DNA of 64,000 nucleotides from an uncultured Bifidobacteriaceae bacterium (GTDB taxonomy: Bacteria > Bacteroidota > Bacteroidia > UKL13-3), in assembly GCA_964535575.1 (NCBI GenBank), contig CAZHTC010000003.1, positions 112,640-176,639 of the forward strand, read 5' to 3'. The stretch's first letter is position 1; the number at the start of each line of letters is the position of its first letter. A model generated the notes under the pieces. The model was not told the origin of the DNA. It worked only from the letters and a program-made list of their open reading frames with translations, and ran no database searches. The position numbers and the translations under genes were made by a program. Positions 2,925-57,505 of the stretch are shown in pieces.

Positions 2925-3395
2925 TCAATCTTTCGGATCTCCTTTTTCAATACGTATGCCTGCAGCTGCAACAGCCGCAAGCGTGTCATCTCGCATGTTT
3001 TGTTCTATGCGGAAACGATAAATACCCCTTTGGGCAAGATTCGCATTTTTAACAACCAGAAATTGGTAGTCATACATATCTCCCAAACCACTTCCCAGCC
3101 ATTTTCCCAAATCGTCAGCCAACGGAATTTCAAACCGTTGTTTAAGGTCTTTTTTGTCGGGTAATTGTGTATGTAACAATACAAACATATTGTTGTATTT
3201 GTAATCGGAGCGAATGCGGGTGTTGAGGTAAATATTATAAAAATACCCTGTGTCTTCAACCATCACATCAAAACCAACCAAATCTTTATAGAACCAATTG
3301 TATCCCGGAATTTCTTTGTTTTCATCAATCACCCGGTTTGGGTCGCATGAGGTTAACCCGATGAGTAAACATAAAACACAAAACAGATTACGCAT
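2925..3395 (-). CDS. gldH: Gliding-motility lipoprotein GldH
   Basis: 156 aa with signal and lipobox MRNLFCVLCLLIGLTSC. Size and the conserved Bacteroidetes position downstream of a PSP1-domain gene and holB both fit GldH. Confidence 0.7.
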   Translation of the reverse strand: MRNLFCVLCLLIGLTSCDPNRVIDENKEIPGYNWFYKDLVGFDVMVEDTGYFYNIYLNTRIRSDYKYNNMFVLLHTQLPDKKDLKQRFEIPLADDLGKWLGSGLGDMYDYQFLVVKNANLAQRGIYRFRIEQNMRDDTLAAVAAAGIRIEKGDPKD

Positions 3396-4837
3396 TATTC
3401 AGCAGGCGGTTTTGGTGGATTGTTATCATTACGCTTCTGTGCATTGGGGTTGTTTCCCCGATTGTTTCGGTTTTGATTGTTCCGCTGGTTATTGTTTCGG
3501 TTATTATTTGGCCTGTTCTGGTTCTGTGGTGGACGCTCGTTTCGTGGTTTTTGCCCTTCTTTGTTTTGAGGAGGTGGTTCCTGACGATTCGGATTGTGCG
3601 AATGCGGAGTATTTGTTTTAGGTTTTTCCTGATTTCCTGTCTCTTTTCGCTGTTTGTTATCGCCACTCCGTGTCTCTCTTCTTTCGTTTTGATTGTTTCG
3701 ATGGGAGGAATTGCTGCGGTTGTTGTTTTGGCCTTTTTTCTTTTTTGGACGATCCAAACGGGTAATGCTGTCTTCGCCCACCATGTCTTTATAGTCGGGT
3801 TCTTCAATCACCACCTCTTTTTCGTTCGCATATTCTGAAAGCATAGCGGGTTTTTCGCCACGGGCATTCATTTCCATCAGCTCTTTTACCTTTTGTACTG
3901 GTAAACTAATCCAGCTATTGCTGTCTCCGCCAATTACGGTAAACAGCATGATTCGTCTTAAAATATCGGTTTTTTGCAGAATGGCCCTTCCTGTTTCAAG
4001 CTCAATGGTTAGTTTATCGTCTTTAGGAAACTCCTGAAGAGCCTCCACATAGGTATCGAGTTCGAAATTAAGACAGCACTTTAATCTTCCGCACTGACCT
4101 GAAAGTTTGAGCTGATTCAACGATAAATTCTGGTAACGCGCTGCCCCGGTATTTACCTGTTTAAAATCAGTGAGCCATGTACTGCAGCAAAGGGTACGTC
4201 CGCATGAACCGATTCCGCCCAAACGACCAGCTTCTTCCCGGTAACTTATCTGACGCATTTCAATTTTCACCTTGAAAGCCTCAGCCAGGCGTTTAATCAG
4301 TTCCCTGAAATCCACCCGTGCCTCGGCCGTGTAGAAAAATACGGCTTTACGCCTGTCGGCCTGATATTCCACATCGCTTAATTTCATATCCAGCCCTAAT
4401 TCAATGGCAAAACTACGTGCCTTGTACTGGGTAGGAATTTCAAGTTCCTTGCATTCCTGCCATTTAGCCAAATCGGCTTCGGTGGCTATGCGATATATTT
4501 TTTTGATGCGATCGTCATCTTCACTCACTCCGGCTTTTTTAAGCTGAAGTTTTACCAACTCTCCCTTCACTGAAACTCGGCCAATATCATATCCTCCGGT
4601 TTCAACTTCAACCACAATAGGCTCGTCTTTGTACAAATCAAGATGATGAACGTTCCGGTAAAACCCTTTCCGGCTTCCTTTAAAACTAACTTCCACCACA
4701 TCAAAAGGACGCATGGAAGGAGGCAACTCCATATCGGCAAGCCAATCGTAAACATTTAATTTATTGCAGCCACCCGTGCTGCACCCGCCCGAACTACATC
4801 CTCCGCCTTTTGTACCACAAGCTACTCCACATCCCAT
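3395..4837 (-). CDS. PSP1 C-terminal domain protein (YaaT-like) with an N/Q/R/P-rich disordered C-terminal tail
   Basis: The N-terminus is Gly/Cys-rich, followed by FDVVEVSFKGSRKGFY...GRLKCCLNFE, which are PSP1 hallmarks. The last ~130 aa are low complexity (NNNRNNNQRNNQNRNN...). The stop overlaps the gldH start by 1 nt. Confidence 0.8.
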   Translation of the reverse strand: MGCGVACGTKGGGCSSGGCSTGGCNKLNVYDWLADMELPPSMRPFDVVEVSFKGSRKGFYRNVHHLDLYKDEPIVVEVETGGYDIGRVSVKGELVKLQLKKAGVSEDDDRIKKIYRIATEADLAKWQECKELEIPTQYKARSFAIELGLDMKLSDVEYQADRRKAVFFYTAEARVDFRELIKRLAEAFKVKIEMRQISYREEAGRLGGIGSCGRTLCCSTWLTDFKQVNTGAARYQNLSLNQLKLSGQCGRLKCCLNFELDTYVEALQEFPKDDKLTIELETGRAILQKTDILRRIMLFTVIGGDSNSWISLPVQKVKELMEMNARGEKPAMLSEYANEKEVVIEEPDYKDMVGEDSITRLDRPKKKKGQNNNRSNSSHRNNQNERRETRSGDNKQRKETGNQEKPKTNTPHSHNPNRQEPPPQNKEGQKPRNERPPQNQNRPNNNRNNNQRNNQNRNNRGNNPNAQKRNDNNPPKPPAE

Positions 4838-7652: not shown

Positions 7653-8672
7653 ATGATGCAGGAAGAATTTAGCATTTCCTTAAAACCATACAACACCTTT
7701 GGGATTGATGTGCAGGCTGATAAGTTGGTGCACATCCAAACACAGGAACAGTTAAAAGAACTTATTCGCAATGGGGCATTTACCACCGGCCCTTTTTTAA
7801 TTTTAGGAGGCGGAAGCAACGTGCTGTTTACAAAAGATGTGAACGGACTGGTTGTAAGAAACGAATTAAAAGGCATTGAGGTGATCAAGGAGGATGACAG
7901 CTATGTGTGGGTGAAAGCAATGGGCGGAGAAATATGGCATGAGTTTGTACTTTGGAGCATAGAACGGAATTTTGGCGGCATTGAGAATCTTTCACTCATT
8001 CCGGGTACTGTGGGTGCTGCACCCATGCAAAATATAGGCGCTTATGGAGTGGAGATTAAAGATACATTTGATAGTTTGGAGGCCTTCGATTTGAAAACCG
8101 GAGCATTAAAAGTTTTTTCTCAAGGCGATTGCAGGTTTGGATATAGGGAAAGCATATTTAAAAATGAGGCTAAAGGAAGCTATTTTATTGTTTCGGTTAC
8201 GTTCAAATTGAACAAACATCCGGTGTTTAATAATTCTTACGGAGCCATACAACAAGTGCTGGAACAAAACGGGGTGAAGGAATTATCCATTAAAGCAATA
8301 AGCGATGCGGTTATAGCAATCCGAAGCAGCAAATTGCCCAATCCTTCCGTAATTGGAAATGCCGGGAGTTTTTTCAAAAATCCCGAAATAGACATAACTC
8401 AGTTCAACACATTAAAGCAACAATATTCTTCTATTGTGGGGTATCCCACCTCGTCCGGTAAAATTAAAGTTGCGGCAGGGTGGCTTATTGAACAATGCGG
8501 GTGGAAGGGAAAGCGTGTTGGCAATACCGGTTCGCATAAAGATCAGGCATTGGTTCTGGTGAATTACGGAGGGGTAAAAGGAGAGGAAGTATATCAGTTA
8601 GCCGAAGCCATTAAAAAGTCGGTAGCTGATAAATTCGGGATTAACATACAAATGGAAGTGAATATTATCTGA
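7653..8672 (+). CDS. murB: UDP-N-acetylenolpyruvoylglucosamine reductase
   Basis: LKPYNTFGID...ILGGGSNVLF...IPGTVGAAPMQNIGAYGVE...CRFGYRESIFK...GNAGSFFKNP...KVAAGWLIEQCGWKG is collinear with E. coli MurB. Confidence 0.9.
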   Translation: MMQEEFSISLKPYNTFGIDVQADKLVHIQTQEQLKELIRNGAFTTGPFLILGGGSNVLFTKDVNGLVVRNELKGIEVIKEDDSYVWVKAMGGEIWHEFVLWSIERNFGGIENLSLIPGTVGAAPMQNIGAYGVEIKDTFDSLEAFDLKTGALKVFSQGDCRFGYRESIFKNEAKGSYFIVSVTFKLNKHPVFNNSYGAIQQVLEQNGVKELSIKAISDAVIAIRSSKLPNPSVIGNAGSFFKNPEIDITQFNTLKQQYSSIVGYPTSSGKIKVAAGWLIEQCGWKGKRVGNTGSHKDQALVLVNYGGVKGEEVYQLAEAIKKSVADKFGINIQMEVNII

Positions 8673-8739
8673 TAAGATTCATATTTCTTTAACGCATAAA
8701 AATTACCTGCCTCTTTTTATTTTCGTTGATATTTGTGAC

Positions 8740-9627
8740 ATGCCCCGTAAATGTTTCAGTATTATTGCGTGTAGCATTCTGTTGTGTTGCGAGATCGTTT
8801 GCACTCCTGCAACAAAGGATTCAAACGAAAAACCGTTAGAAAAAAAGCAAACGGAAGATTTAAATAAACCACCGGTTGATACTTTTTCTGCTCCGGTTGA
8901 GTTGGTAGGTTATCAATTGATACCTCATGATTCAGTAAACCTGAGCGATAGTTTAACCAAAGCAGTGATTTGTGCATTAAACCGCATGGATGCCTATCAT
9001 TTGGGCAGGGCTGATTCACTTGTTATACCCAATATAATTACAGAAGATTTTCTTCGTTACACTCCATTCCCAACTGAGTGCAGTTCATTGAAAGAAATTC
9101 CAAAATGTATTCTAATTTCTTACCCTTTACAGGCTTTTGCGGGTTACGAAAACGGGAAATTGATAAGGTGGGGGCCGGTAAGTTTGGGCAAACAATCTTC
9201 ACCCACACCACTCGGACTTTTTTACTGTAACTGGAAATCAAGGAAAACAGTAAGCACCATTAATCCAGAATGGATTATGGAGTGGTATATTAATCTCGAT
9301 AACCGTTTGGGTGTTTCCATGCACCAATATGATTTACCAGGTTATCCTGCTTCGCACGCCTGTGTAAGGTTGTTAAAACACGATGCTGTTTTTTTGTACC
9401 GATGGACGGATTCCTGGCAATTAAAAGATGATTGGAATATATTGCGTTACGGGACTCCTGTACTTATTTTTGGGTCTTATGTATTCAAAACTTCATCACC
9501 CTGGTTTAAAAACGGAGAAATGTTGACCATGCGGGAGGATGAACTTACCAAAGAAGTTTCACCCTATTATGCAGAATTGATGCAAAGGCTGCAACCCACC
9601 GGTGGTAGCATTGGACCTTCACCTTAA
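8740..9627 (+). CDS. L,D-transpeptidase (YkuD) domain protein
   Basis: The catalytic-type motif GYPASHACVRL resembles the SHGC(I/V)RL signature. A signal peptide with several Cys residues is present. Confidence 0.5.
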   Translation: MPRKCFSIIACSILLCCEIVCTPATKDSNEKPLEKKQTEDLNKPPVDTFSAPVELVGYQLIPHDSVNLSDSLTKAVICALNRMDAYHLGRADSLVIPNIITEDFLRYTPFPTECSSLKEIPKCILISYPLQAFAGYENGKLIRWGPVSLGKQSSPTPLGLFYCNWKSRKTVSTINPEWIMEWYINLDNRLGVSMHQYDLPGYPASHACVRLLKHDAVFLYRWTDSWQLKDDWNILRYGTPVLIFGSYVFKTSSPWFKNGEMLTMREDELTKEVSPYYAELMQRLQPTGGSIGPSP

Positions 9628-10094
9628 TAAATTTGGCTGATAGTTAATTTACGTCCGTTAAATTCAACAAAATCATTTTTTGTTTTTCCGGTTAATGAGC
9701 GGGCTAAGGGAGCCTTGGGAGAAAGAACAATAATTTTTTTATCAGCGAGATGAATAACACCAATACCCGCAGCAACAAACAGCAATTCCGATCCACAGTC
9801 AATTAATGCTCCGATCTCTGCCTGTTGGTGATGAACGGTTAAATCAATTTTCAGCAATTGGGTCAGTTCTTCTTTTGCTTCAGCCAGTTGTTTGGCATTC
9901 CGGTCCCGGTCTATCTGGCTCATCGCCCTTCCGGTTTCATACTTATCTCCGGCACTGCTTTTTTCTTCGCTGTTGGCACTTTCCTGAGCTGCTTTCATGG
10001 CGTGTTCTGCCACCTGCATTCTGTTTTGAATATATTTTTTGCAAGCGTCAACTATTTCTTCTTTAAATGCTTGTATCTCTTTGCCTGATTTCAT
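9624..10094 (-). CDS. GreA/GreB-family domain protein
   Basis: The C-terminus LSPKAPLARSLTGKTKNDFVEFNGRKLTISQIY resembles the GreA FKBP-like C-domain, preceded by a coiled-coil N-half. Confidence 0.5.
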   Translation of the reverse strand: MKSGKEIQAFKEEIVDACKKYIQNRMQVAEHAMKAAQESANSEEKSSAGDKYETGRAMSQIDRDRNAKQLAEAKEELTQLLKIDLTVHHQQAEIGALIDCGSELLFVAAGIGVIHLADKKIIVLSPKAPLARSLTGKTKNDFVEFNGRKLTISQIY

Positions 10095-10192
10095 TCGGAC
10101 GACAAAGGTACATTGATTACAATAGTTTCAGCACTATAAAAATCATGTAATCAATTCTTGTTACTCTTTCAGTTTATCAGCACCTTTGCACC

Positions 10193-11272
10193 ATGATCAC
10201 CGAAAAAGAAATACTTCAGGCCCTGAGCCACGTAGAGGAGCCCGATTTACACAAAGATCTGGTAATGCTGAATATGATTAAAGATATTCAGATTAATGAC
10301 CTCAATATTGAATTCACCATTGTATTAACAACCCCTGCTTGTCCGCTGAAAGAAAAAATTGAAAAAGATTGTGTAGCGGCCATTCATCAATATGTAAATG
10401 ATAAGGCCATTGTTAAAGTACATATGGCATCCAACGTAAGCAGCACCCGTCAGGATAAATTTGTGTTGCCCGGTGTACGCAATATTGTTGCAGTTATATC
10501 CGGAAAGGGAGGCGTTGGTAAATCTACCATTGCAAGTAATCTAGCTATGGCTCTTTCGTTGTCAGGGGCAAAAGTAGGGGTACTTGATGCCGATATTTAC
10601 GGCCCGTCTCAGGCATTAATGTTTGGCTTGCAGGGCGAGCAACCTTATATGGAGGAAGTAGATGGAAAATCTATGATGATCCCATTGGAGAAGCATGGAG
10701 TGAAAGTAATGTCGGTTGCATTCCTTTTAAAACCCGATCAGGCCGTTGCGTGGCGCGGGCCAATGGTTTCATCGGCCCTTAAGCAATTTGTGAGCGATGT
10801 AAGCTGGGGAGATCTGGATTACCTAATTCTGGATATGCCTCCGGGAACCGGAGATATTCATTTAACTCTATTGCAAACAACTCCACTTACCGGTGTGGTG
10901 GCTGTTACCACTCCACAGGAAGTGGCGCTGGCCGATGCACAAAAGGCTATTGCCATGCTTAGCATGGTTCCTGTTAAAATTCCTGTTTTGGGTGTGGTTG
11001 AAAATATGTCCTGGTTTACACCCGTTGAATTGCCGGAGAATAAATATTTCATTTTTGGTGAAGGTGGAGGGGAAAAACTTGCCTCACTTTCCTCAAGCCC
11101 CCTACTGGCAAAGATTCCGATTTATATGGGTATCATGAAGGGTGCTGATACAGGAGAACCAGCCGCTTTACAACAGGATTCACCTTATGGAAAAATCTAT
11201 AGTCAGTTGGCGCAGGCAGTTGCTCAGCAGGTGGCTATTGTAAACGGGAAAACCTCATCAGTTTCGGCATAA
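10193..11272 (+). CDS. apbC: Fe-S cluster carrier ATPase Mrp/ApbC (NBP35 family) with an N-terminal DUF59 (MIP18-like) domain
   Basis: A deviant Walker A, ISGKGGVGKSTIASNLA, is present. The N-terminal DUF59 region reads EEPDLHKDLVMLNMIK. Confidence 0.9.
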   Translation: MITEKEILQALSHVEEPDLHKDLVMLNMIKDIQINDLNIEFTIVLTTPACPLKEKIEKDCVAAIHQYVNDKAIVKVHMASNVSSTRQDKFVLPGVRNIVAVISGKGGVGKSTIASNLAMALSLSGAKVGVLDADIYGPSQALMFGLQGEQPYMEEVDGKSMMIPLEKHGVKVMSVAFLLKPDQAVAWRGPMVSSALKQFVSDVSWGDLDYLILDMPPGTGDIHLTLLQTTPLTGVVAVTTPQEVALADAQKAIAMLSMVPVKIPVLGVVENMSWFTPVELPENKYFIFGEGGGEKLASLSSSPLLAKIPIYMGIMKGADTGEPAALQQDSPYGKIYSQLAQAVAQQVAIVNGKTSSVSA

Positions 11273-40942: not shown

Positions 40943-41015
40943 ATTTACTCTCCTATAAAACTAAAACAGCCCGACATGTGTTTGTGCCGGGCTGTTTTAG
41001 TTTTATAGCATCAAG

Positions 41016-43697: not shown

Positions 43698-44347
43698 ATG
43701 AAGTAATTATTCAGGTCAAAGTAACATACTTTTTTTCAAATTGCGACAGTTACTCCTATATATATAAGGTAAAACAGCAGTTTTTCATTGCTGATTCTGC
43801 GGGTTTCACTCCGAAATACCTTTGTTCTGGGTGTATTTTCATTGCAGAAGTTGAATCCTGACCCGTTTTTCCCTGTCGATAACTGGTGTTTTTAGAGGGA
43901 AAAGAGGGTTTTTAAAGAAAAAAACAACTTTTTTTAGTTGGGCGTATAGGCTGTTGCCAATGAAAATTCTGCGCGGTAAAGCGAATTTACCAATGAAAAA
44001 AATATGCAGACAAAATATGCAGAAATAAGTTTTTACGAAAGAATCGTTTGCGTATTATCAATTCGCTGAAACTATTGAAAACACAGGCTTCTTCAAGGAT
44101 TTGCAAAAAGGCTATTGTTTGTTTGTTTTCGCAATTCATCAATGGAAAAACAGGCTAAAAAATCACATTTAGCAGGGAAAATAGCCTTAATTAAACCAAT
44201 TCTCATTGGATATTGCAATAGGGGAGTGTACGATTTTAATAACATTTATTTTAAGAAATGTGGAAACTGTTTTGTTGCAACCGCTATGAAATTTGCAATG
44301 AAGATGTATTTTTGACTATCAGATCAACTGAATAAAAGTTTAAACCC

Positions 44348-44746
44348 ATGGCAAAAAAAGTAGTAAAAGCAAAAAAAGCTGCTAAAAAAGCAGCTCCAAA
44401 AAAGGCTGCTAAAAAAGCAGCTCCAAAAAAGGCTGCTAAAAAAGCGGCTCCAAAGAAAGCAGCTAAGAAAGCAGCTCCTAAAAAGAAAACTGCAAGAAAA
44501 CCAAACGCAGCTTTCATGGCTCCATTAACTCCAAGCGCTACGCTTGCTGATGTAATCGGAACCAAAGCCCTTCCAAGGACTGAGATCGTTAAACAAATTT
44601 GGAACTACATTAAGAAAAACGGTCTTCAGGACAAGAAGAACAGAAGAATGATTAATGCCGATGCAAAACTGAAAGTTCTTTTCGGTGGCAAAGGACAGAT
44701 TTCTATGTTCGAGCTTGCTAAGATTGTTTCTAAGCATGTAAAGTAA
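44348..44746 (+). CDS. Histone-H1-like Lys/Ala-rich protein fused to a SWIB/MDM2 domain
   Basis: The N-terminus has (AAKKAAPKK)x4. The C-terminus VKQIWNYIKKNGLQDKKNRRMINADAKLKVLFG is a SWIB fold. Confidence 0.8.
   Translation: MAKKVVKAKKAAKKAAPKKAAKKAAPKKAAKKAAPKKAAKKAAPKKKTARKPNAAFMAPLTPSATLADVIGTKALPRTEIVKQIWNYIKKNGLQDKKNRRMINADAKLKVLFGGKGQISMFELAKIVSKHVK
44372..44479 (+). repeat. Four tandem 27-nt coding repeats (aaaaaggctgctaaaaaagcagctcca) inside the H1-like gene
   Basis: Directly visible. Copies 1-3 are near-identical and copy 4 is diverged. Confidence 0.9.
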
Positions 44747-56919: not shown

Positions 56920-56994
56920 CACAGGAGGGCATTCTCCCTGTTATACTGAGTTTATTCGCTTTGTTGGAGGCACTGCACATCACAAACACATGCT

Positions 56995-57430
56995 GAAAAT
57001 GATCCCGTACGTACGGGAGAAGCAGTTTCTCCAAAGGAGAGCAGATGGTTTCAAACAAGGAGATCGCCACGCCATGAGTACATGGCTCGCGATGACGGTG
57101 TGTTTGGTGTTAAAAAAGAAGCGTCACTGCGAGGCACGAAGCAGTCTCCAAAGGTGAGCAGTGGTTTCAAACAAGGAGGTTGCTTCGTCATGAGTACATT
57201 CCTCGCAAAGACGGTGTGTTTTATATTTCGCAGTCCCCCAAAGAAGAGCACATGGTTTCAAACAAGGAGATCGCCACGCCATGAGTACATGGCTCCCCGA
57301 ATAAGTCGGGGCACGCGCGATGACGGTGTGTTTTGAGTTTCGTTGTTAAAAAAGGAATCGTCACTGCGAGGTACGTGGTACATCCCGTCAGTACGGGGAA
57401 GCAGTCTCCCAAACATAGCAGGTTATCACA
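56995..57430. repeat. Degenerate tandem repeat array (units of about 90-170 bp, roughly 3.5 copies) rich in perfect palindromes
   Basis: Recurring blocks are tctccaaagg, tggtttcaaacaaggag, gccatgagtacatggc, gacggtgtgtt, cgtcactgcgagg and cccgt(N4)acggg+gaagcag. Palindromes lie at 57004-57017, 57071-57086, 57278-57293, 57295-57311 and 57384-57397. Confidence 0.8.
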
Positions 57431-57505
57431 AATGGGAGAAGTTATATCGTTTTGAAACTAAAAATTAACCTGTAACTTTGATTAAACGAAAAGCAGCCCG
57501 CTGCT

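Follow-up and report, generated by a model that had tools for sequence, protein, structure and literature searches.

A probable BIME-like cluster of CGTC-tagged extragenic palindromes between a WG-repeat gene and a lipoprotein-like gene of an uncultured member of the Bacteroidia

Among the repetitive extragenic palindromes (REPs) of bacteria, those that carry a CGTC tag have previously been sorted into four families, CGTC-1 to CGTC-4 (Di Nocera, De Gregorio & Rocco 2013, BMC Genomics 14:522, PMC3733652). As described in the text and supplements of that paper they have an unpaired CGTC or TGTC tag, with CCTC allowed as a variant, an A-T pair at the start of the stem, a short loop and a tail resembling CCA; they are found singly or as inverted dimers, which are frequently heterodimers, and now and then in clusters, in five phyla including Bacteroidetes, they have no dedicated transposase, and many REPs are suggested there to act as RNA. 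Here we describe an array of short hairpin units in the spacer at positions 56920-57505 of a stretch of 64,000 nucleotides (nt), hereafter the window, from an uncultured bacterium of the Bacteroidia lineage UKL13-3 (assembly GCA_964535575.1, contig CAZHTC010000003.1, positions 112,640 to 176,639). We consider, with a probability of about 0.72, that this spacer is a cluster of REP-type extragenic palindromes resembling the bacterial interspersed mosaic elements (BIMEs); because elements of this kind are known, the array itself is ordinary.

In keeping with the published description all five recognisable units of the window read CGTC, and the A-T start of the stem is found as well, the units beginning AC, AT, TT, AT and AC. 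Of 260 unique copies collected from viral contigs and genomes, 163 have T in front of GTC, 73 have C, 13 G and 11 A. The tail appears to be similar, short, unpaired and pyrimidine-rich (CCA, TCC or CCC), positions +1 to +3 after the last C of the search pattern being mostly T/C, C and C; counting that C, the alphaproteobacterial type reads CCAG and the window CTCC, where the published consensus is CCA. The habit of occurring as singletons, dimers, heterodimers and clusters, the spread over several phyla and the lack of an adjacent transposase are common to both. There are also differences from what the text and supplements of PMC3733652 describe: a continuous 8-9-bp stem with a 4-5-nt loop is replaced here by a 5-bp stem, G.A/A.G pairs, a bulged A and a variable distal hairpin, and tail-to-tail dimers predominate here whereas head-to-head dimers predominate there. 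The examples given there, CGTCATTCCCGCGAAAGCGGGAATCC and CGTCATCGCCGGGCTTGACCCGGCGATCCA, were deduced from intragenic peptides, none of which translates like a window unit, and the core ATTGCGAG does not occur in the text or supplements. A full-text literature search for the core strings returned unrelated primers only, and the 2025 RepRanger paper does not mention the motif. On that text and those supplements the array is therefore filed as a variant of the CGTC-tagged REPs and not under CGTC-1 to CGTC-4.

The likeness extends to the REPs and BIMEs of Escherichia coli and to REPINs (REP doublets forming hairpins), which likewise are short, imperfectly palindromic and preceded on the 5' side by four unpaired nucleotides. 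As here, E. coli units alternate, have head and tail linker types and form tandem clusters that vary between strains, and as here the inverted dimer is the likely replicating unit of REPINs and they lie after the 3' ends of genes. The E. coli REPs have the tag GTAG, are lineage-specific and are mobilised by REP-associated tyrosine transposases (RAYTs); the elements described here have CGTC or TGTC, share a core that is common to several phyla and, within ~4 kb of the copies, flank no RAYT gene. Bacterial miniature inverted-repeat transposable elements (MITEs) such as Correia/NEMIS, RUP and Nezha are alike in being non-coding, hairpin-forming and multi-copy and in that they can act as terminators or RNA-stability elements. 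However, the conserved part of a MITE is the ends of an insertion-sequence derivative, whereas here it is the small hairpin unit itself, and in the lineage of the window there are no terminal inverted repeats outside the units and no visible target duplication.

The hairpin unit and its alternating arrangement

The unit, a building block of 30-60 nt, can be written (C/T)GTC - AYYGC - GA - G[variable hairpin]C - GAA - GCRRT - CTCC. Copies were collected from viral contigs with the family pattern GTCAYTGCGAG, 1 to 30 nt, GAAGCARTC (at least 120 stretches) and from a genome collection with a narrower pattern that is the window's own variant (at least 119 stretches); the statistics are for the 260 unique copies, and an alignment (A2) and a covariance model were made from 88 copies from other organisms. 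The copies consist of constant flanks around a middle of variable length and sequence that is nearly always a hairpin, with 2.87 consecutive terminal pairs vs 0.64 after shuffling, and the flanks pair mutually, ATTGC with GCAAT. In order the fold comprises the unpaired (C/T)GTC tag, a 5-bp stem (AYYGC/GCRRT), an internal loop, the distal hairpin and a short pyrimidine tail, and the internal loop, with GA on its 5' side and GAA on its 3' side, fits two sheared G.A pairs and one bulged A. Unit lengths range over 21-65 nt among the 260 copies and the closed distal loop from 3 to more than 40 nt; where units are shortest, the distal part is reduced to G-GNA-C or GC-GAA-GC, which we take to be sequences of very stable DNA mini-hairpins. 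One unit of 24 nt is GTCACTGCGAGGCACGAAGCAGTC, and the type is ATTGCGAG...CGAAGCAAT.

The stem is borne out by covariation. Its second pair is T-A in 166 of the 260 copies, C-G in 92 and mismatched in 2, and in the alignment of 88, in which A6-T35 is invariant, columns 7/34 are U-A in 65, C-G in 22 and U-G in 1. Paired cells make up 90.2% of this alignment vs 80.5% when shuffled, and the covariation score of 0.187 (0.079 shuffled) was reached by none of 500 shuffles, all slid-structure controls scoring far lower than the proposed fold. Among the pair types there are 13 G.T, 1 A.C and 54 G.A; the excess of G.T over A.C together with the G.A pairs means that only one strand gives a sensible fold, whether as RNA or as single-stranded DNA.

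In the window there are five recognisable copies and two remnants of this unit, in the order F0 R1 F1 R2 (F) R3 F2 (F forward, R reverse, (F) the remnant of a deleted forward unit; Table 1), and their orientation alternates strictly along the array, which is the architecture of a BIME. When the covariance model was run on the full 64 kb with filters off it gave five matches, all in the array, and the only three matches outside it were at chance level (E 2-5). F0, which parallels F2, scored under the threshold. The segment CGTCACTGCGAGGCACGAAGCAGTCTCC (57122-57149) recurs in the array as its reverse complement with a small hairpin inserted. Between the units two types of linker recur, a tail-to-tail linker with TGGTTTCAAACAA and a head-to-head linker in which a T-rich run leads into an A-run. 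F1 and R2 form a 94-nt tail-to-tail dimer that folds as single-stranded DNA at -20.9 kcal/mol (z -4.84) and as RNA at -39.1 kcal/mol on the + strand (z -3.3) and -35.7 kcal/mol on the - strand (z -3.7); R1 by itself folds as single-stranded DNA at -10.3 kcal/mol (z -3.05).

An earlier sequence-only reading had described the spacer as a degenerate tandem array of units full of perfect palindromes. The repeats and the palindromes are real and exceed shuffled expectation, and each of the palindromes that were listed is the variable distal hairpin of one unit, the 16-nt palindrome being that of R1; the arrangement is not a simple head-to-tail one, as the units alternate. A repeat finder gave a 58-nt block three times (57031, 57147 and 57238; family D1, 69-97% identity), a 24-nt block three times (57088, 57204 and 57316) and a 27-nt block twice (57112 and 57349), and the spacer holds degenerate repeats of about 91-116 nt plus several palindromes; the shorter, 91-nt spacing in D1 arises because a forward unit has been deleted, leaving the stub at 57230-57239. 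Against shuffles of the window, TGGTTTCAAACAAGGAG occurs in 3 exact copies (0.41 expected), GCCATGAGTACATGGC in 2 exact copies and 1 decayed copy (0.26 expected) and CGTCACTGCGAGG in 2 exact copies in the array and 1 inverted copy with 2 mismatches (0.5 expected for the whole window), and no further copy of any array motif lies elsewhere in the 64 kb. Two details did not hold: CGTCACTGCGAGG was said to be in each unit and is exact in two units only, and the CCCGT-N4-ACGGG hairpin, said to end each unit in three copies, is present twice (57004 and 57384) and not at the end of every unit. Tandem Repeats Finder reported nothing in 56920-57505, which is explained by the large indels between units and by a basic element whose orientation flips from one copy to the next, and no plasmid matched the full 586 nt in a BLAST search.

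R3 equals R1 with an insertion of 21 nt (57296-57316) that carries the hairpin CCCCGAATAAGTCGGGG (57295-57311), and forward units of the related loci L246 and L247 carry the same insertion at the corresponding place. This 21-nt hairpin module (CCCCGAATAAGTCGGGG plus CACGC, or variants) follows GCG in the window, at ~935-955 and ~1071-1090 of L246 and at ~3160-3180 of L247, hence in oppositely oriented units of different genomes, and could be either an insertion or an alternative type of unit.

Table 1. Coordinates of the array, its linkers and the adjoining genes in the window (bits and E values are from the covariance model)
Feature	Position	Strand	Details
WG-repeat protein gene, 475 aa	55492..56919	+	Open reading frame list; Pfam WG_beta_rep, E 3.9e-49; array starts directly after the stop codon
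F0, decayed forward unit	56969..57032	+	Degenerate 5' half GGCACTGCACA; distal hairpin CCCGTACGTACGGG at 57004-57017; 3' half GAAGCAGTTTCTCC
Tail-to-tail linker, copy 1	57033..57057	+	AAAGGAGAGCAGATGGTTTCAAACA; within family D1; TGGTTTCAAACAAGGAG, three copies
R1, reverse unit	57058..57098	-	CCGTC-ATCGC-GAG-[CCATGTACTCATGG]-CGTG-GCGAT-CTCC; 14.2 bits, E 0.15
Head-to-head linker, copy 1	57099..57120	+	T-rich run then A-run, GTGTGTTTGGTGTTAAAAAAGAA; repeat families D2, D4 and D5
F1, best-preserved forward unit	57121..57150	+	gCGTC-ACTGC-GA-G-GCA-C-GAA-GCAGT-CTCC; 40.9 bits, E 1.6e-8
Tail-to-tail linker, copy 2	57151..57173	+	Repeat blocks, TGGTTTCAAACAAGGAG
R2, reverse unit	57174..57214	-	CCGTC-TTTGC-GAG-GAATGTACTCATGA-CGAA-GCAAC-CTCC; 28.9 bits, E 2.1e-5
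Shortened head-to-head linker	57215-57229		Precedes the forward-unit remnant
Remnant of deleted forward unit	57230..57239	+	GCAGTCCCCC; by reading of the sequence
Tail-to-tail linker, copy 3	57240..57264	+	Repeat blocks, TGGTTTCAAACAAGGAG
R3, reverse unit	57265..57326	-	9.8 bits, E 2.2; single-stranded DNA fold -15.2 kcal/mol, z -2.78
Head-to-head linker, copy 3	57327..57357	+	T-rich run, 11-nt insert, A-run
F2, forward unit	57358..57410	+	Long distal part with hairpin CCCGTCAGTACGGG at 57384-57397; 28.5 bits, E 2.6e-5
Promoter-like boxes of the lipoprotein-like gene	57451..57480	+	Outside the array; TTTG 57451-57454, 18 nt, TAACTTTG 57473-57480; 25 nt before ATG
Lipoprotein-like gene, 173 aa	57506..58027	+	Lipoprotein-type signal peptide; no Pfam family

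Occurrence in relatives and in other phyla

Alternating units are also found in four close relatives of the locus, and by the covariance model their number varies. L247, a syntenic activated-sludge contig with 87% nucleotide identity, has three alternating units, L246 and L249, both with different upstream neighbours, have five and three respectively, and L251, a strain-level variant, has four. L245 and L248 have the lipoprotein-like gene and its promoter-like boxes and no units. When metagenomes were scanned for linker and unit in the combination specific to this lineage, L250 came up, in which the same dimer and linker occur at two loci without a lipoprotein-like gene, one of these dimers filling a 166-nt gap between the convergent open reading frames (ORFs) 8598-9167 (+) and 9333-10193 (-). 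Each dimer in this lineage has AAAAAAGAAG before it and GTGTGTTT after it, and these flanks are kept in L246, L247, L249 and L250. The sequence-only reading had listed the absence of additional copies elsewhere among what would overturn it; copies are present at other L250 loci and across phyla, and with a dispersed dimer and a variable array that outcome is not what was found.

Two further observations concern this position in related contigs. Of five short contigs that contain the downstream gene (L001, L002, L004, L005 and L003) four, which are short-read contigs, end inside the array and the fifth fuses unit A to unit C, which is either assembly collapse or real copy-number variation. In L245 (Bacteroidia metagenome-assembled genome (MAG) GCA_019695215.1), positions 3500-3745, the spacer ahead of the homologous gene where the array would be, hold two candidate tRNA-like sequences and a terminator-like hairpin, as judged by eye.

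Among the matches listed, the core occurs in Chloroflexota, which have the most, Bacteroidota, Proteobacteria, Cyanobacteria, Acidobacteriota and phage contigs. Bacteroidota are represented in that list by Pedobacter, Algoriphagus, Roseivirga, Fulvivirga, Chitinophagaceae and Cyclobacteriaceae, and further matches listed are to Nitrospiraceae, Fibrobacter, Thermodesulfatator and Caldatribacterium; Pedobacter, Algoriphagus, Roseivirga and Thermodesulfatator are isolates, and plasmids of isolates of Methylosinus, Methylocystis, Calothrix, Aulosira and Halomonas carry the core as well. The usual layout is a forward unit, a spacer of 8-67 nt and an inverted partner, and in the genome sample a C-G variant is combined with a T-A variant in 59 dimers vs 2 homodimer combinations of C-G. 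Alternating arrays are not confined to the window lineage: the Chloroflexia MAG L138 has one of 11 units with a 101-nt period, and others are present in L227, from a Chloroflexi MAG, and L215, from Pedobacter nanyangensis Q-4.

The sequence-only reading had also offered a decayed mobile mini-element as an explanation. This is partly right: two of the units are remnants, and a MITE-like element of ~205-215 nt encloses the dimer in a single genome of the Chloroflexota, that of the Anaerolineales MAG A3. The element has sharp edges, terminal inverted repeats of ~20 nt (TTAGAGCCTATCCGAAAAT) and flanks that are unrelated from copy to copy. At least 12 copies of this element are present in MAG A3 (L129, L151, L154, L167, L171, L179, L180, L190, L192, L212, L223 and L230), and 2 of the copies have the 16-nt loop of the forward unit's distal hairpin in inverted form while 3 lack it. 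With these 12 or more loci in one MAG and the two loci in L250 the hairpin unit is repeated, dispersed and dimeric, with no recurrent transposase gene within ~4 kb of the copies.

No cognate RAYT or IS200 gene flanked by units was found when approximate IS200 TnpA/RAYT queries were run with phmmer on 5,242 ORFs within ~4 kb of the copies. The single RAYT-like match, in L153 (Chitinophagaceae MAG JAGXRG010000050.1), is flanked by a different hairpin, GGTTCGTGAGACACGAACC. This gene, at 3000-3780 of the reverse strand, encodes a RAYT-like HUH protein (VIMPNHIHLIW ... YIHNNPV) and has a hairpin of its own, GGTTCGTG(A/T)GACACGAACC, on either side; a single CGTC-type unit lies between two copies of the RAYT hairpin, such that two unrelated palindrome families are interleaved. 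Since no transposase recurs near the copies, the mobility of the element is inferred and not shown.

Weighing the alternatives

Several observations weigh against a REP-type cluster. When the 5,242 ORFs of 239 loci, taken from ~4 kb around the copies, were clustered, no gene recurred near the copies, the only clusters being phage structural genes and ABC transporters, and no pair of an empty and a filled site with a target duplication was found for this lineage. By crude ORF calls units lie in 41 unidirectional, 17 convergent and 17 divergent spacers, vs 254, 67 and 78 in the background, so that divergent spacers are not depleted of units, unlike in reports on classical REPs. For the minimal unit F1 alone stability is not predicted by nearest-neighbour calculation (z 0.18), and R1 and R3 are marginal by the model (E 0.15 and 2.2). 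Furthermore the T-runs next to the dimers are interrupted and other lineages are without them, and the terminator role discussed below rests on sequence shape. On the other side stand the alternating hairpin units, the two linker types, the presence in many phyla and the copy number that varies among relatives, and it is on these that the REP/BIME-like palindromic family proposed by the sequence-only reading is upheld.

It is possible, although we regard it as rather doubtful, that the units belong to an undescribed class of single-strand hairpins that spans phyla. Such a class would be defined by a near-invariant core of ~20 nt, a tandem G.A/GNA-type fold, a covarying stem pair and obligatory heterodimers of the C-G and T-A variants, and would be maintained in Chloroflexota, Bacteroidota, Proteobacteria, Cyanobacteria and phages by a conserved trans-acting protein, perhaps an enzyme of single-stranded DNA or an RNA-binding factor, unlike the lineage-specific transposases of ordinary REPs.

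A rival explanation is that the array encodes small structured RNAs, or a structured 3' untranslated region or leader, with the G.A hairpin as an RNA motif such as a protein-binding or processing site. The strand-specific G.A pairs, the 13 to 1 ratio of G.T to A.C, the covarying stem pair and a distal hairpin with compensatory change would all suit RNA, as would the single units that in phage contigs often lie directly upstream of ribosome-binding sites and the action as RNA that PMC3733652 suggests for many REPs. However, the G.T and G.A pairs fit single-stranded DNA equally, and units face either way with respect to the genes beside them and alternate within arrays, and any one transcript therefore has only half of the units in the G.A form. 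At gathering scores Rfam 15 has no match in the window, 12 viral loci and 20 genome loci, and at relaxed thresholds (the window and 5 small loci) the matches are at chance level, so that no Rfam family is found in the window or these 37 loci. A sigma-70 promoter scan gave no site before the array, a consensus that is not expected to fit Bacteroidota, and the conserved promoter-like boxes that belong to the lipoprotein-like gene come after the array, downstream of it. An array of small structured RNAs, which the sequence-only reading had put forward first, was not supported by these results and we judge it, together with the leader and 3' region variants, to be unlikely.

It would seem very unlikely that the array is a regulatory region specific to the lipoprotein-like gene family, for example an array of protein-binding sites. 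Arrays do precede lipoprotein paralogues in five contexts (the window, L246, L247, L249 and L251), of which L246 and L249 have other upstream neighbours, but L245 and L248 have the gene and its boxes without an array, the L250 dimers are at loci without such a gene, and the core is also found in unrelated phyla. Least likely of all is a functionless local duplication of this lineage in decay, with the similarity elsewhere incidental: two remnants, indels of 20-80 nt between units and a variable copy number would fit, but the model made from copies of other phyla recognises three units at E 1e-5 to 1e-8, alternating units and heterodimers recur in Pedobacter and Chloroflexota, and dimers lie at other loci.

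A number of known elements were also considered and rejected. The sequence-only reading was correct in excluding a CRISPR array, an insertion sequence and an ordinary promoter; as regards CRISPR, the units are mutually inverted, the linkers are themselves repeated and the spacing is irregular. A type III toxin-antitoxin RNA array was dropped in view of the lipoprotein signal peptide of the downstream protein, the promoter-like boxes that its gene has to itself, and units that are inverted, not direct. The G.A/GAA part resembles the flanks of stem II of a hammerhead, but there is no catalytic core or three-way junction; a kink-turn would have its bulge on the other strand, and the R and L boxes of an integron attC site are absent.

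The locus and a possible role of the cluster

The ORF list and Pfam confirm that 56920-57505 is exactly the 586-nt non-coding spacer between the WG_beta_rep gene and the lipoprotein-like gene, as the sequence-only reading had placed it. Its description as ORF-free holds in that there are no real genes; mechanical ORFs of 40-84 aa do traverse the region, have no Pfam match and in relatives are broken by indels of units. The WG-repeat gene is syntenic in L247, at 87% nucleotide identity, and genes further upstream in the window carry type-IX-secretion sorting domains (Pfam), by which the window is assigned to Bacteroidota. Homologues of the 173-aa lipoprotein-like protein are only hypothetical proteins of uncultured Bacteroidia. 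Its promoter-like stretch is kept in all relatives, including L245 and L248 which have no array, and the boxes TTTG and TAACTTTG match what we take, from Bacteroides promoters, to be the Bacteroidota-type consensus. The gene is single-copy in the window and forms tandem paralogue arrays in relatives (L248 3342-5085; L247 3450-4516), in which each copy is preceded by the same promoter-like stretch of ~35-60 nt.

Two other repeats were seen in the window. The largest direct-repeat family, at 44343-44504, is a coding tandem repeat with 12-15 nt from start to start that is rich in AAG and GCT (a Lys/Ala/Pro-rich, histone-H1-like tail), and at 40953-41008 there is a near-perfect inverted repeat of 24 nt with an 8-nt loop (CTATAAAACTAAAACAGCCCGACA / TGCCGGGCTGTTTTAGTTTTATAG) that looks like a two-way terminator.

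A forward unit and the next reverse unit, with their tails facing, form a hairpin of ~90 nt. If the spacer is a cluster of REP-type palindromes, the unit would act single-stranded, its G.A and G.T pairs being kept on one strand only. Tail-to-tail dimers may have spread by means of an enzyme supplied in trans, and recombination or slippage between units may then have enlarged or reduced the local clusters. The cluster could then serve as a two-way transcription stop, a 3'-end hairpin or an insulator between the WG-repeat gene and a lipoprotein-like gene that is separately promoted. The A-run before and the T-rich run after each dimer suggest that the dimers would be two-way intrinsic terminators or insulators and make a two-way terminator the most likely role, and since the promoter-like boxes lie downstream of the array and are kept without it, termination or insulation after the WG-repeat gene would be the most economical function.

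For annotation, the spacer should be labelled as a repeat cluster and not as genes or small RNAs, and the cluster is one that breaks short-read assemblies. The CGTC-tagged palindromes constitute a REP superfamily without an assigned mobilising enzyme or function, and a subfamily that is unusually conserved across phyla, from soil Chloroflexota to Bacteroidota and phages, and in which a rigid core and a distinctive fold with G.A pairs go together with a variable hairpin and a strict heterodimer rule offers a well-defined bait for the partner protein. Should the dimers with their A-run and T-run flanks indeed stop transcription both ways, Bacteroidota would have in them a portable insulator module.

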